Virus genome (UHGV): UHGV-0081829
Length of the DNA: 40,614 nucleotides
Source of the DNA: a virus
Strand: one strand, 5' to 3'
Within the stretch, counting starts at the first letter, position 1; each line of letters begins with the position of its first letter. A model generated the notes under the pieces. The model saw only the letters and a program-made list of their open reading frames with translations, made no database searches and was not told where the DNA came from. The position numbers and the translations under genes were made by a program. Positions 31,041-35,175 of the stretch are shown here, in pieces.

Positions 31041-31060
31041 CGATCATGTCATAATGACGA

Positions 31061-31462
31061 TTATTTTTTATTATCAAGACCGCCATTATGGTATATGTAA
31101 TACCCTACCTGAATGGCGGAAAGAACTAGCCCGGTTCTGTTCTCGGTATTTTTTTTGCTTTCTCCTTGAAGATTTTTCTTTTGTTTTTTGGCGCTTGATA
31201 AAACCTCTCTTTCAATGTCCTCATACTGCATGCCATCGTAAGCGTTTTGGTATGCACCTTGGCATACGCGGGATATTGTCTGTATGAGGTCCATCCTTTT
31301 GGACTCCTGCAATGGAACGTCCTTTTCATAGGAGCTAACCAAGGACGATGAAGCTCTGTTGCAATCCACTAAAACTTGATGTGAAGTAAGGCCGCCAGAC
31401 GAGAAGCACACGGAAGGGCTTAGCAGAAAGAGGATTGAGATGGTAGATTTTAAGATGTTCAT
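31061..31462 (-). CDS. Secreted/exported protein with N-terminal signal peptide, hypothetical (island cargo)
   Basis: MNILKSTISILFLLSPSVCFSSGG signal-like N-terminus; lysine-rich C-terminus; AT-rich by eye. Confidence 0.5.
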   Translation of the reverse strand: MNILKSTISILFLLSPSVCFSSGGLTSHQVLVDCNRASSSLVSSYEKDVPLQESKRMDLIQTISRVCQGAYQNAYDGMQYEDIEREVLSSAKKQKKNLQGESKKNTENRTGLVLSAIQVGYYIYHNGGLDNKK

Positions 31463-31526
31463 TTTAGAGATCCGTATTGGTTATTTCAATTACCCATTAA
31501 ATGAAGAAAAAACACGCAACACCCAC

Positions 31527-31877
31527 TCAGGTGGGCTTGTCATCATTATTGACAACGATATGATCTTGACATTCGCTCAGTAAGGCGCCTATTTCACGAT
31601 GATTAAACCCTTCAGCGATGAATCTTTTCCCGTCGTTAGTTTGTATCTCTAGCTTTTTCCCCTTGTTTCTGGCGACGAAATATCCAATTGCAGCAGATAA
31701 ACAATTCATTGCCGCAGGGCTTGTTATTCCGTTAACAATTACTTGCACCCACTCTGGTGGAGACGAGCTGTCGAATGCGAGTGTTACATGTGGCTTATGT
31801 TCTAGCCCCCATGTTTGCATTGCTTCGTTCAATGATTCAACATCTTCTTGTCGGACGGTAAAAATGAAACTTTCCAT
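31527..31877 (-). CDS. Hypothetical protein (island cargo)
   Basis: 116 aa; GGAG 8 nt before the ATG at 31877. Confidence 0.45.
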   Translation of the reverse strand: MESFIFTVRQEDVESLNEAMQTWGLEHKPHVTLAFDSSSPPEWVQVIVNGITSPAAMNCLSAAIGYFVARNKGKKLEIQTNDGKRFIAEGFNHREIGALLSECQDHIVVNNDDKPT

Positions 31878-32112
31878 CGTTTACACTCCATCGTTAAAAA
31901 ATATTGGTAATGCCTTTAGCCTAATCTGGGGTGGGATATCATTGCTTCTCGGGAGAGAGGTCTCTATCGAGAGTGATATTACCCCAACAGAATTCACCAA
32001 AATGGTGGTCGATGATCTTCGCCGGCAAGCAAAGAGCGGAGAGTTGAAAATGACTCAAGAAGAGTTGCGCACTTCGCTGCTTGCTGCTCTTGATGGAAAT
32101 TAATTGCTACTA

Positions 32113-32580
32113 TCAAGAGTTTTTTAATCCTGGAATTATGGGTCTAGATAAACATCCACACCCTACAAGTTGTCCTGGGTGGATGTACTTGAAAAAACCG
32201 ATCCTGATTCCTTTACGAATAGAGTACTTTTTGCCATTGAGATTGCGGTGACTGGGATGTTTACATAGGAAATCCTCAAACACCCACGCTGCCTCAGTGA
32301 TCTTAATCTTTAATCGGCGTGCCGCCTCAACCTCAGGATTAGTGATAGACCAAAGGATCATAGCAAGACGGCCAGATATCTTTTCGCTAAGTCCGGTTTC
32401 TTGAATGATGTTATTCTTTGAGTTGTACAGGTTTCGACCATGCTTTACGACATCTTGGTATAGCCCTTTATGGTTCTTAACATCGATAATTAATTTCTTG
32501 ATTATCAACAACTCATCTGCTGATGCTTTTTTAAATTCTACATTGATGATTTCATTTTCTTCCTTGCTAAGACATGCCAT
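32113..32580 (-). CDS. Hypothetical protein co-transcribed downstream of the mnt-like gene
   Basis: 155 aa; GAGG 6 nt before the ATG at 32580, 23 nt after the mnt-like stop. Confidence 0.5.
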   Translation of the reverse strand: MACLSKEENEIINVEFKKASADELLIIKKLIIDVKNHKGLYQDVVKHGRNLYNSKNNIIQETGLSEKISGRLAMILWSITNPEVEAARRLKIKITEAAWVFEDFLCKHPSHRNLNGKKYSIRKGIRIGFFKYIHPGQLVGCGCLSRPIIPGLKNS

Positions 32581-32603
32581 AGCAACCTCGTAATATCGTC
32601 TTC

Positions 32604-32846
32604 TTACTTGATGTTTGCTTCCTTAATGGCTGCAACCTCTCTCTCAAGAGCTATTAATCTTTCGGTTAAGGAAGAAAGGCTAAGCGAGTGAACATGTTTA
32701 TTTTCTCCTGCCCATGCACTTAGAGCTGCAACCATTTCTGCATTTAAAGATCTGCCATTCGCCTCAGCTAACGCGGTTAGGCGATCCTTTATCTCCACAG
32801 GAAGTCGAAGATTAACTTGTGGGTTCTTGTACCTGCGTTCAGACAT
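32604..32846 (-). CDS. mnt: Mnt-like ribbon-helix-helix repressor (Arc/MetJ family)
   Basis: N-terminal NLRLPVEIKDRLTALAEANGRSLNAEMVAAL RHH motif, about 80 aa, divergent from an arc-like gene as in P22 immI; start at 32846 (AGGA 7 nt upstream) or 32852. Confidence 0.6.
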   Translation of the reverse strand: MSERRYKNPQVNLRLPVEIKDRLTALAEANGRSLNAEMVAALSAWAGENKHVHSLSLSSLTERLIALEREVAAIKEANIK

Positions 32847-32850
32847 CAGC

Positions 32851-32937
32851 ATATCCTGAATAATTTTTTACCACAGGATATGTAGGTATCTATTGACTAT
32901 CAATGCGTACCTACATACTATGTATGCGTACCGCATA
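32851..32937. promoter_or_regulatory. Divergent mnt/arc control region with nested palindromic operator candidates
   Basis: ATATCCTG-15 nt-CAGGATAT (32851-32881); TGTAGGTA-19 nt-TACCTACA (32881-32915) enclosing ATTGA-cta-TCAAT; TATGCG-tac-CGCATA (about 32921-32937). Confidence 0.5.
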
Positions 32938-32951
32938 CCAAAGGAGCGAAA

Positions 32952-33098: not shown

Positions 33099-33164
33099 GT
33101 AAAGCCCCAGATATTGCGAGTATCTAGGGCTTAAATCGCCAGTAAGTATTGAGGAAAAACTGAC

Positions 33165-34094
33165 ATGAAAAGTATAGCAACAGCGGTATCTACTATCAAC
33201 GTACCATTCCACGGCGCAGAGCTTTATGTTGTCAATCACAACGGCGAACCGTACACCCCAATGAAACCTATCGTTGAGGGAATGGGTATGACTTGGCAGT
33301 CTCAACACCGCAAGTTGATGGAGAGATTTAAGACCTGCATCATCGAAATGATGATTCAGCTCCCCGGTGATACTCAGCGTCGTCTGGTTATCTGTCTTGC
33401 TTTACGTAAACTTGCAGGCTGGCTGCAAACCATCAGCCCTAACAAAGTCCGTCCTGAAATCCGCGACAAGGTAATCCAGTATCAGGAAGAGTGTGACGAT
33501 GTGCTCTATGAGTACTGGACTAAAGGCCATGTGGTTAATCCACGCAAAGCTAAAAAGGCGTTGCCGGGCAAAATCACCACTGAACAGCAGGAAGCCATTA
33601 AACAACTTGTCATGAGTCGTGGTCAGTCTCTGCCAAAAGAAAAACAGGCGAAGGCGATGATCACCATGTGGTCGTCACTGAAATCCCATTTTGGATGTTC
33701 GTACAAAGAAATCAGTGAGGAGCAGTTTACCGAAGCACTGTCACTTGCAGCTCGAGTTCCACTTGAAGGTGAGTTCATTAGCAAGCAAGAGAAGAAAGCA
33801 AACGAGCTTTCTGCAAAAGAAGCAAACAGCCTTGTATGGTTATGGGATTATGCCAACCGCTCACAGGCATTATTCCGCGAACTGTATCCGGCATTAAAAC
33901 AAATTCAATCGAACTATTCCGGCAGATGCTACGACTACGGTCATGAGTTCTCGTATGTTATCGGAACGGCGAGAGACGTTTTAATCAACCACACACGAGA
34001 TGTTGATATCAATGAGCCAGACGGACCAACAAATCTTTCTGCATGGATAAGGCTTAAGAATAAAGAATTGCCGCCTTCTGTTCATCTGTATTAA
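33165..34094 (+). CDS. ant: Antirepressor (Ant-like, P22_AR N-terminal-type domain)
   Basis: 309 aa directly downstream of arc; N-terminus [34 protein letters not shown] resembles antirepressor N-domains; GAGGA 9 nt upstream. Confidence 0.6.
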
Positions 34095-34110
34095 TGACGC
34101 ATCTGGCGGT

Positions 34111-34140
34111 GAAAAAAAACCGCCAGTGTGCTGCTGGCGG
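34111..34140 (-). terminator. Intrinsic terminator oriented on the minus strand downstream of ant
   Basis: Perfect 7-bp stem CCGCCAG/CTGGCGG with a 7-nt loop (34120-34140); minus strand continues with T8; no minus-strand CDS nearby. Confidence 0.4.
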
Positions 34141-34178
34141 CCTATGTCACACCCTTACTACCACATAAGGAATGCCTA

Positions 34179-34904
34179 ATGACTTTTAAGAATGTAGCAA
34201 ACATCGGATCCGTTGTCACGGATAAAACCATTGACAGCCAAAGTCTTCTGATGATGGTTAATGAAGCTCGCAAGTTATGTGGAGAGCCATCAGTACGTAA
34301 CAACAAATTCATCGAGAAAATTGAGGATGAATTGGAAGGCGAGACCTACACAAAAAGTGTAGGTCGGAAAAACGGGGCTGACATTGATGTTATCTCCATG
34401 ACTATCAAGCAGGCGCTTCGTGTTGCTGCTCGCGAATCTAAAGCAGTTCGCCGAACACTTGTAGACAAACTTGAAAGTATGCAGGAAGCGCACATTAAAA
34501 GCGGTAAATCAGCGAGTGGACTTGTTGAGTATCGTCAAGCGCGAACATTGAAAATGACGGTTGAAGCTGTTACCAATCTGTTCGATCTGATGCCAAATCT
34601 TGCGCCGGAGGCAAAGCAGACAGCGGCAGCAAGTATAATCAACCCGCTCGTTGGTTTTAATGCAATACCTCTTCCAGCAATAGAAGAGCATTACTACTCA
34701 GCAGGGGAGGTTGCAGAGCAGCTTGGAGTAACGGCCAACAAGATTGGTCGCATTGCTAACGCAAACAACCTCAAAACTGAGCAGTACGGGAAGTTCTTCC
34801 TGGATAAATCTGCACATTCCAGCAAACAGGTGGAAGCATTCCGCTACAATGCGGAAGGTATTAAAGCACTACAACACCTGATTCATGGGAGTAATGTTGC
34901 ATAA
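34179..34904 (+). CDS. Hypothetical phage protein (possibly DNA-binding/antirepressor-like)
   Basis: ATG at 34179 with AAGGAA 6 nt upstream (MTFKNVANIG...); 241 aa; track ORF 34128..34904. Confidence 0.5.
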   Translation: MTFKNVANIGSVVTDKTIDSQSLLMMVNEARKLCGEPSVRNNKFIEKIEDELEGETYTKSVGRKNGADIDVISMTIKQALRVAARESKAVRRTLVDKLESMQEAHIKSGKSASGLVEYRQARTLKMTVEAVTNLFDLMPNLAPEAKQTAAASIINPLVGFNAIPLPAIEEHYYSAGEVAEQLGVTANKIGRIANANNLKTEQYGKFFLDKSAHSSKQVEAFRYNAEGIKALQHLIHGSNVA

Positions 34905-35125
34905 TGGCAAAGAAAAAATATGGCATTATGCCGCCAAGAATCAAAGGAAGAGCCAGGGTAAAAGGCGATGCTGGAAGGTATCACATTCTTGGAGTTCTGT
35001 GGCATGAGAGAGCTTTAATTTTAAGTAGACCTCATGGGTACATTGAAAAGGTATCTATAGATAGAATTGAGATTCTTCCCCTTACTCCTGAAGAAGAAGA
35101 AACGTACGGACTTTTTGATAACTAG
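34904..35125 (+). CDS. Hypothetical small protein
   Basis: 73 aa; start overlaps the upstream stop; followed by a strong terminator. Confidence 0.4.
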   Translation: MAKKKYGIMPPRIKGRARVKGDAGRYHILGVLWHERALILSRPHGYIEKVSIDRIEILPLTPEEEETYGLFDN

Positions 35126-35135
35126 CCAATTCACT

Positions 35136-35163
35136 AAACCCAGCTTCGGCTGGGTTTTTGTTT
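35136..35163 (+). terminator. Intrinsic terminator closing the immI-like island
   Basis: Stem AAACCCAGC/GCTGGGTTT with loop TTCG followed by TTTTGTTT. Confidence 0.65.
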
Positions 35164-35175
35164 AATGGAGAGTAG

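Follow-up and report, generated by a model that had tools for sequence, protein, structure and literature searches.

Which elements occupy the 4.1-kb block that separates the tape-measure stop codon (31040) from the start of the first baseplate gene (35176) in the phage genome UHGV-0081829, and what might they do there? The window, meaning the whole stretch of DNA that was analysed (40,614 nucleotides, nt), is a temperate Escherichia coli myovirus with lambdoid regulation, its head and tail module being of the Gofduovirus type, as in the Edwardsiella phages GF-2 and Edno5. An earlier note, made from the sequence alone, had described the block as an immI-like mnt/arc/ant island of the kind known from phage P22, with additional cargo genes. 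The explanation reached here, which is probable as a whole, is that the tape-measure/baseplate junction is a hot spot that carries a P22-type immI together with separately mobile cargo modules, whose individual roles are proposed below with different degrees of confidence. Compared loci (prophages, phages and metagenomic contigs) bear labels such as L001 (NZ_CP054662.1), L005 (NZ_CP035850.1), L025 (phage CUS-3) and L031 (a Rouxiella prophage), and gene calls of PGAP, the NCBI annotation pipeline, were taken from the records of relatives.

The immI module comprises the following features:

32604-32852, minus strand: Mnt-like ribbon-helix-helix (RHH) repressor, an open reading frame (ORF) of 82 amino acids (aa)
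32875-32938, no strand assigned: control region with divergent promoter-like sites and two palindromes
32952-33098, plus strand: Arc-like RHH repressor of 48 aa, first gene of the ant operon
33098-33164, minus strand: putative sar-like antisense RNA of 67 nt, filling the arc-ant intercistronic region and complementary to the ribosome-binding site (RBS) of ant
33165-34094, plus strand: Ant antirepressor of 309 aa, matching P22_AR_N (1.3e-45) and P22_AR_C (1.6e-29)

The existence of the features of the island at or near the coordinates given here and below was confirmed, and the genes are conserved rather than chance ORFs. Judged from its sequence, the island holds a genuine P22-type immI with Mnt-like and Arc-like proteins, a sar-like RNA and Ant. 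The Mnt-like protein, whose gene is transcribed divergently from the ant operon, matches Pfam Arc (2.1e-10), is 67% identical to the Mnt protein of CUS-3, and has an RHH part that is 47% identical to the P22 Mnt RHH (E 5e-12); its start probably lies at 32846, giving 80 aa, as indicated by RBS spacing and the PGAP call. The Arc-like protein matches Pfam Arc (1.6e-5) and is 31% identical to P22 Arc (E 6e-6), and its homologue in relatives is labelled 'Arc family DNA-binding protein' by PGAP, in agreement with the earlier note, which had pointed out an arc-like RHH gene missing from its ORF list. Ant is 57% identical to P22 Ant (E 2e-122).

The sar-like stretch folds as two hairpins (-24.3 kcal/mol, z -5.2), and a promoter-like site for it (TTGATA-17-TATACT with an upstream TG; 33199-33171, minus strand) lies inside the 5' end of ant, so that position, fold and promoter-like site have the same geometry as those of the annotated P22 sar. 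In the control region, a Pant-like site (TTGACT-17-TACTAT; 32893-32921, plus strand) overlaps a Pmnt-like site (TTGATA-17-TATCCT; 32903-32875, minus strand). A palindrome with 18-nt arms (32879-32917) extends across both -35 regions, which is the position of Oarc in P22, and a perfect palindrome, GTATGCG-N3-CGCATAC (32922-32938), lies just past the ant-side -10, the position of Omnt; from position and consensus we infer promoter and operator function for these sites. The control region is near-identical between CUS-3 and the window, and mnt/arc/ant share 87% nucleotide identity. The identification of the island as immI-like is thus borne out by domain matches, pairwise P22 matches, the sar-like RNA and the P22-like promoter/operator geometry. 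Moreover, a CI-like repressor, CII and the Q antiterminator are encoded beside immI, and therefore the layout would be that of a two-part immunity as in P22.

A RefSeq label that marks ant as a pseudogene in the closest relative, L001, was considered and rejected, the translation being intact and identical to the 309-aa Ant of the window. RefSeq splits the gene there (L001 5166-6095) into a partial pseudogene and a separate gene for the C-terminal domain, which looks like an annotation artefact.

The borders of the island, the tail genes beside it and the presumed target of Ant are as follows:

6206-6940: CI-like repressor, helix-turn-helix plus S24
26668-28158, plus strand: tail sheath, followed by tube and chaperone genes and then the tape measure
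29223-31040, plus strand: tape-measure or lytic tail protein (605 aa; SLT transglycosylase domain at the C-terminus), which borders the island on the left
35136-35163, plus strand: intrinsic terminator, a 9-bp stem plus T-run at 35136-35157, which borders the island on the right just before the baseplate genes
35176-35991, plus strand: first baseplate gene, Dit-like, at which the tail operon restarts

In the related metagenomic tail operons L014 and L015 the tape-measure stop overlaps the baseplate start, an empty site, and because of this the 4.1-kb block is read as an insertion. This agrees with the earlier description of a block that interrupts the tail operon between 31040 and 35176 and ends in a strong terminator; an equivalent hairpin lies 5' of the baseplate gene in the Yersinia loci. 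GC content is 0.40-0.43 in the left part of the island and 0.45-0.49 in the flanks. The tape-measure protein matches Pfam SLT (2.8e-19) and phrog_2013, 'lytic tail protein' (2.7e-191), and the baseplate protein matches Pfam Dit_like at 1.3e-4, under the curated cut-off, as well as phrog_1830. In L009 (7002-8885) and L017 (5616-7385) the N-terminal half of the tape-measure protein is conserved and the C-terminal part is non-SLT, with no Pfam match; such differing C-terminal parts among relatives suggest that the tape measure can itself exchange its lytic domain.

The same junction has different contents in E. coli prophages with the same flanks. Two E. coli prophages (L003 and L004) have the same island without its last two genes, and a third (L002) has a Panacea toxin-antitoxin pair, a LexA-family repressor and ant. 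A P63C gene accompanies the 155-aa gene of the cargo and mnt, arc and ant in L005 and L029, and a Panacea pair does so in L028 and L030; the link between mnt and the 155-aa gene thus persists through changes of the left cargo. Of 5426 complete E. coli genomes, only 4 have the left cargo in full. We read the junction as a hot spot of recombination, in which the modules present have moved separately. YafO-toxin-like genes were also seen beside immI-like modules, in CUS-3 (L025 1077-1496) and in the Rouxiella prophage (L031 2860-3294); together with the Panacea antitoxin-domain genes in the E. coli variants of the site, they indicate that toxin-antitoxin genes recur beside such antirepressor loci.

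The cargo lies to the left of mnt:

31061-31462, minus strand: 133-aa secreted protein with a Sec-type signal peptide and two invariant Cys in its mature part
31503-31535, minus strand: hairpin CCCAC-CTGA-GTGGG with a T-rich tract, weakly terminator-like, enclosing the stop codon of the 116-aa gene
31527-31877, minus strand: 116-aa cytoplasmic protein, one half of a two-gene cassette
31864-32103, plus strand: 79-aa gene (80 codons) on the late-operon strand, filling the 235-nt gap between the 155- and 116-aa genes
32113-32580, minus strand: 155-aa basic protein, 23 nt after mnt and with a GAGG RBS; short helical N-terminus and stand-alone MuF/SPP1-gp7 core

By their arrangement and distribution, these genes form separate modules, namely mnt with the 155-aa gene, the 116/79 cassette, and the 133-aa gene. 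Each of the three minus-strand ORFs has a conserved family that shows purifying selection, non-synonymous change (pN) being far below synonymous change (pS). The families are very small, and the modules are potentially novel. The earlier note had counted three unrecognised cargo genes; these are present as it described, including the 23-nt spacing and GAGG of the 155-aa gene and the signal peptide of the 133-aa protein, which is conserved in homologues, but a fourth, the 79-aa gene, had been missed.

As its alignments indicate, the 155-aa protein is a stand-alone MuF/SPP1-gp7 core and a paralogue of the C-terminal domain in the minor head protein that the window itself encodes (20866-21684); residues 45-152 of the 155-aa protein align to that domain (BLASTP E 3e-11). 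A profile of the 155-aa family finds only this MuF ORF among the 346 ORFs of the window (E 1.1e-8), phrog_324 (head morphogenesis) is matched at 1.6e-8, and a tblastn search of 50,697 phage genomes gave matches only to head-morphogenesis genes, in 30 phages, and no stand-alone orthologue. Residues of about 40-155 correspond to the C-terminal MuF core, with which the H...G and PG...C-x-C motifs are shared, whereas the N-terminal part of MuF is lacking (155 versus 272 aa) and the gene is found away from the head module with its portal gene (19410-20945), being part of a lysogeny-control locus and reading from the opposite strand. Among the signs that the earlier note had set against a cargo function was a match to virion proteins; what was found is that the 155-aa protein is paralogous to a virion domain, MuF/gp7, but is not the actual head protein of the phage. 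It carries 26 Lys plus Arg and 15 Asp plus Glu residues, a net charge of +11, and its AlphaFold model, of limited quality (predicted local distance difference test, pLDDT, 70.5), has a helical N-terminus and no RHH strand. The family, under purifying selection, comprises 18 clusters; wherever a source organism is named, it belongs to the Enterobacterales.

The genomic surroundings of this family are more telling. A homologue stands directly after the RHH gene in the window, L001, L003-L005, L010 and L028-L031; in L022 and L009, where an RHH gene is missing, it is divergent from an antirepressor gene of KilA-N or pRha type, and in Edwardsiella it lies beside a BstA-type gene. In every context examined, then, it adjoins antirepressor control (Ant, Bro-N, pRha, KilA-N or BstA-type genes), and this recurrent linkage is the strongest clue to its role. 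The spacing and the linkage across genomes suggest that the 155-aa gene is co-transcribed with mnt. The first choice for its role, put forward tentatively on the basis of context and still somewhat short of an even chance, is that of an accessory of the antirepressor switch. Some further observations were made at these loci. The KilA-N-type and pRha-type antirepressors of L022 (5790-5880) and L009 (5805-5890) share a conserved leader of ~75 nt with GC-rich hairpins nearby, and the intergenic regions of these two mnt-less loci contain no LexA box. In L005 (4314-4778) an intact homologue, 97% identical and downstream of mnt, lacks RefSeq annotation.

The best of the alternatives, possible if on the unlikely side, also concerns this protein, which would be a lysogen-expressed decoy that binds portal or head-assembly partners of invading MuF-dependent phages, with Arc repression of the mnt promoter sparing the induced prophage. 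The homology to the C-terminal core of minor head proteins in many phages and the location of the gene in the mnt operon are as this alternative would have them, and a prophage protein that blocks virion assembly, Tab, has been demonstrated (PMC10884400). Nevertheless, a decoy leaves unexplained the tight linkage to several unrelated antirepressor families, including the two loci without mnt, and it finds neither a defence-family match nor structural support. The accessory role in the antirepressor switch is placed before it.

In the case of the 116/79 cassette, the conservation of the plus-strand frame carries the argument. The 79-aa ORF, annotated by PGAP in L001 and L003, is open from the same start position in every diverged locus having a 116-aa homologue, its amino-acid similarity is retained where the DNA is only about 50% identical, and the ratio of non-synonymous to synonymous substitution (dN/dS) is 0.12-0.32 where computable. 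Additionally, in nearly every comparison this frame has the lowest non-synonymous and the highest synonymous divergence of the frames, a pattern by which the 79-aa ORF is taken to be a real, conserved gene. Its start overlaps that of the 116-aa gene head-to-head by 14 nt, and it is convergent with the 155-aa gene. Whereas the loci are otherwise about 50% identical, some 50 nt around the pair of starts hardly vary. Each of the two mRNAs must begin inside the partner gene, and the transcripts would consequently be mutually antisense at their 5' ends. The hairpin at the end of the 116-aa gene is conserved in homologous loci, and it did not pass a consensus terminator scan.

The pair travels by itself. 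Yersinia prophages have it at the same junction without immI, accompanied in L011 by a homologue of the 133-aa gene and in L012 and L013 by unrelated secreted proteins instead; in L014-L016 it stands alone between two baseplate genes, and in L019 and L021 it directly follows a Mnt-like gene. Where tail genes are visible, the 79-aa gene is co-oriented with them and the 116-aa gene is opposed. A comparable arrangement is known from the Pseudomonas phage JBD26, in which Tab is a constitutive prophage defence that blocks virion assembly and anti-Tab is its late-expressed antidote (PMC10884400); there, too, a small gene opposes the late structural operon and overlaps a small partner on the late-operon strand. 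By this logic and from its context, the cassette could consist of an accessory or effector gene and a late-expressed antagonist or regulator, an assignment that should be regarded as a candidate of rather low probability.

Of the three minus-strand cargo proteins, the 133-aa protein is the one with a predicted path to the envelope. Its homologues keep the full length, the hydrophobic N-terminal signal sequence (in the window, a hydrophobic core at residues 3-18) and the two cysteines. RefSeq calls the gene as 77 aa from an internal Met (WP_047085296.1 in L001, L002 and L003, corresponding to 31061-31294 of the window), and this PGAP call is too short because it leaves out the signal peptide and 56 residues, all of them conserved. 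L002, a prophage without the rest of the island, has the gene and the 45 nt upstream of it at 100% identity. Only four representatives of the family were found by a profile search among 1.84 billion proteins; a profile match to the myxoma virus protein M11L (E 0.003) was treated as a chance match between helical proteins. The slot beside the 3' end of the tape-measure gene holds a small secreted or membrane protein in nearly every relative, among them secreted proteins of 154/156 and 159 aa, a 77-aa protein with two membrane segments and, in GF-2 and Edno5, small membrane proteins; the tape-measure gene of L019 is outside the view, and a 262-aa secreted protein lies beside the 116/79 cassette there. 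From this context a periplasmic exclusion or conversion factor in the position of P22 sieA is suggested, as a guess on the doubtful side of even.

A joint reading takes the 116/79 cassette and the stand-alone MuF core as two undescribed devices that separate the lysogenic state from late growth. The 116-aa protein would then be an anti-phage or assembly-interference effector and the 79-aa protein an antidote made only upon induction, the 14-nt head-to-head overlap would keep one expression state from coexisting with the other, and the MuF core, recruited from a virion protein, would act as a repressor where Mnt is absent or poison the head assembly of invaders. It is improbable that both parts hold together in this form.

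The earlier note had gone further and proposed one operon (31061-32580), expressed in the lysogen. In its full form this alternative has mnt and the 155-, 116- and 133-aa genes transcribed from the mnt promoter, the three cargo proteins jointly being an envelope-associated exclusion or conversion system. All four genes indeed share the minus strand, mnt is not separated from the 155-aa gene by a strong terminator and none directly follows the latter, a 116-aa homologue follows a Mnt-like gene in L019 and L021, and the 133-aa protein is secreted. The cargo nevertheless does not read as one operon, because the conserved plus-strand 79-aa gene intervenes in the 235-nt gap, overlapping the 116-aa start, and because other prophages have the modules independently of one another; the 116-aa gene is also followed by a conserved hairpin. 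As for the envelope, a hydropathy scan found no signal peptide and no membrane segment in the 116- and 155-aa proteins, so that only one of the three proteins (133 aa) is predicted to reach it. This alternative is very unlikely, and separate modules are preferred.

Still less probable is a type II toxin-antitoxin pair made up of the Mnt-like RHH protein as antitoxin and the 155-aa protein as toxin. An RHH gene followed at tight spacing by a second gene is typical of such pairs, the two ORFs overlap in L010, and other immI-linked loci or variants of the site carry such genes (Panacea; YafO-like in CUS-3 and L031), but the RHH gene here is part of a full mnt/arc/sar/ant arrangement, 155-aa homologues occur without any RHH gene in L009 and L022, and the 155-aa protein matches no toxin family. 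That the cargo ORFs are decaying leftovers of recombination without current function, the 155-aa ORF being for example a head-gene fragment, would suit a highly mosaic site, tiny families and the rarity of the full left cargo, and is disfavoured to the point of being hardly credible by the selection analysis, all four genes being intact across genera with non-synonymous far below synonymous change and with starts, motifs and lengths conserved.

To the right of ant lies a fourth module:

34117-34143, minus strand: terminator-like hairpin with a 10-bp stem, 6 GC pairs and a T8 tail, at the left edge of a 1-kb module shared with phage JEP4
34179-34904, plus strand: 241-aa antirepressor-like protein, 'KilA protein' in the JEP4 annotation
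34904-35125, plus strand: 73-aa protein, phrog_4977 (5e-54)

This second antirepressor-like gene and its 73-aa partner are common to JEP4, with 98.8% nucleotide identity over the right-hand 1 kb. The ORF of the former (258 aa) reaches upstream to a GTG at 34128, and translation most likely starts at ATG 34179, the PGAP start, giving 241 aa; its match to phrog_1726, 'anti-repressor' (3.2e-101), begins at residue 18 of the ORF. The 241-aa gene is absent from L003 and L004, and the 73-aa gene from L001. No minus-strand gene is evident upstream of the minus-strand hairpin between ant and the 241-aa gene.

How the island would work is drawn largely from P22; the identities of the immI genes stand on their own matches and their regulatory roles are inferred from that phage. 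In the lysogen, Mnt would keep the ant promoter repressed; after infection, Arc would close down both of the divergent promoters. Translation of ant would be prevented by the sar-like antisense RNA, and the CI-like repressor encoded at 6206-6940 would be the protein that Ant inactivates. Q-modified RNA polymerase, which ignores terminators, would carry transcription of the late tail operon across the island and its terminators; Q is present, and read-through is the presumed consequence. The terminator at 35136, in turn, would keep transcripts from the ant promoter out of the baseplate genes in the lysogen.

Several results weigh against this explanation and against the roles proposed for its parts. 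The sar-like RNA scores 28.7 bits against Rfam RF00262 (E 0.01), under the gathering score of 43, and promoter-like consensus matches are no commoner than in shuffled sequence (10 found versus 7.7 expected). Promoters for the 116-, 79- and 133-aa genes are not assignable from sequence, and the only consensus match near the 133-aa gene overlaps its start codon. In a published lysogen transcriptome of a P22-like phage mnt was undetected (PMC12922286), and because of this it is unsafe to conclude from a position downstream of mnt that a gene is expressed in the lysogen. Pfam, NCBIfam and PADLOC gave at most weak, non-significant matches for the cargo proteins, PF04233 and TIGR01641 missing even the 155-aa protein (E up to 0.01 in Pfam and up to 1 in NCBIfam), whereas the window's own MuF matches TIGR01641 at 5.6e-12. 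PHROGs returned only phrog_12509, a family of unknown function (116-aa protein), and the MuF-related match of the 155-aa protein, and sequence searches of solved structures with the cargo proteins found no meaningful match. The 116-aa AlphaFold model, a ferredoxin-like beta-alpha-beta fold, is of low confidence (pLDDT 58.7); structure-based homology searches, which the earlier note had suggested for the cargo, were run with the 155- and 116-aa models and gave nothing specific. With regard to Tab/anti-Tab, the two genes of JBD26 converge, overlap at their 3' ends and have terminase genes on either side, whereas those of the 116/79 pair diverge, overlap by 14 nt at their 5' ends and are placed among tail genes; comparison with JBD26 gp31 and gp30 showed no similarity of sequence (E 22 and E 13). 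Finally, presence of the 133-aa gene does not track the sequence type of the tape measure; this weakens the idea of neighbour-specific targeting, and the 133-aa protein as a specific inhibitor of the adjacent SLT domain was dropped on this ground.

Elsewhere in the window other accessory-looking prophage genes were noticed, namely those for a DUF1828 protein (4489-5241, minus strand), a DUF3024 protein (5855-6196, minus strand) directly downstream of the CI-like repressor, an HNH endonuclease (7611-8423, plus strand) after CII, and a KilA-N/ORF11CD3 protein (16285-16782, plus strand) after the lysis genes.

The island shows the P22 antirepressor circuit moving as a unit between short-tailed and contractile-tailed temperate phages, and a single tail-operon junction serving as a landing pad for regulatory, toxin-antitoxin and envelope genes. 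Its points of value are the secreted protein in the position of sieA, the two-gene cassette resembling Tab/anti-Tab, and a virion domain captured by lysogeny-control loci in several phage types; if any of the proposed cargo roles is true, a new mechanism of prophage exclusion or defence, or a new component of antirepressor control, would be at hand.

An immI at the tape-measure/baseplate junction is already documented in related phages. The Dit-like baseplate protein of the window is 66% identical to ORF-24 of GF-2 and to its counterpart in Edno5, both of the genus Gofduovirus, and these two phages have a Mnt-like RHH gene, arc and ant between the lytic tail protein and baseplate genes, at the same junction; the Edno5 region was explicitly named ImmI by its authors (PMC6372524). 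Because GF-2 and Edno5 already show it, the arrangement alone adds little. Both also have a variable gene downstream of the RHH gene and, next to the tape measure, one for a small membrane protein, but their cargo is unrelated (a 171-aa protein, a 71-aa zinc-ribbon protein, and DUF4282- and pilin-like membrane proteins), and in a presence/absence matrix their Ant proteins were not recovered as homologues of that of the window. CUS-3, a phage of E. coli K1, also has three cargo genes downstream of mnt; it differs in being a P22-like podovirus in which mnt is present twice, arc and ant are separated by an extra ORF, and the cargo is another, one gene of it being YafO-toxin-like.

Compared with P22 itself, a podovirus, the window is a contractile-tailed lambdoid phage with unlike operator sequences, an unrelated C-terminal part of Mnt and a second antirepressor-like gene after ant, and its cargo (155, 116/79 and 133 aa) is without similarity to orf59a or SieA. 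The 133-aa protein in particular has no homology to SieA (E 20) and no PHROG, Pfam or PADLOC match, and it has an N-terminal signal sequence only, whereas the same hydropathy scan gives four hydrophobic segments for SieA, a polytopic inner-membrane protein that keeps out the DNA of superinfecting phages; the earlier analogy with the sieA locus therefore holds as one of position, in a slot occupied by small envelope proteins in nearly every relative. On the other hand, the order and strands of the genes are the same as in P22, the Mnt RHH part, Arc and Ant are homologous, a putative antisense RNA lies in the arc-ant spacer with its promoter-like site inside ant, and divergent overlapping promoter-like sites are accompanied by palindromes at the Oarc and Omnt positions. 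Moreover, both modules are embedded in a late operon beside a gene for a DNA-delivery protein, and in both, extra genes (orf59a and sieA in P22) follow mnt, with the gene for an envelope protein at the far end.

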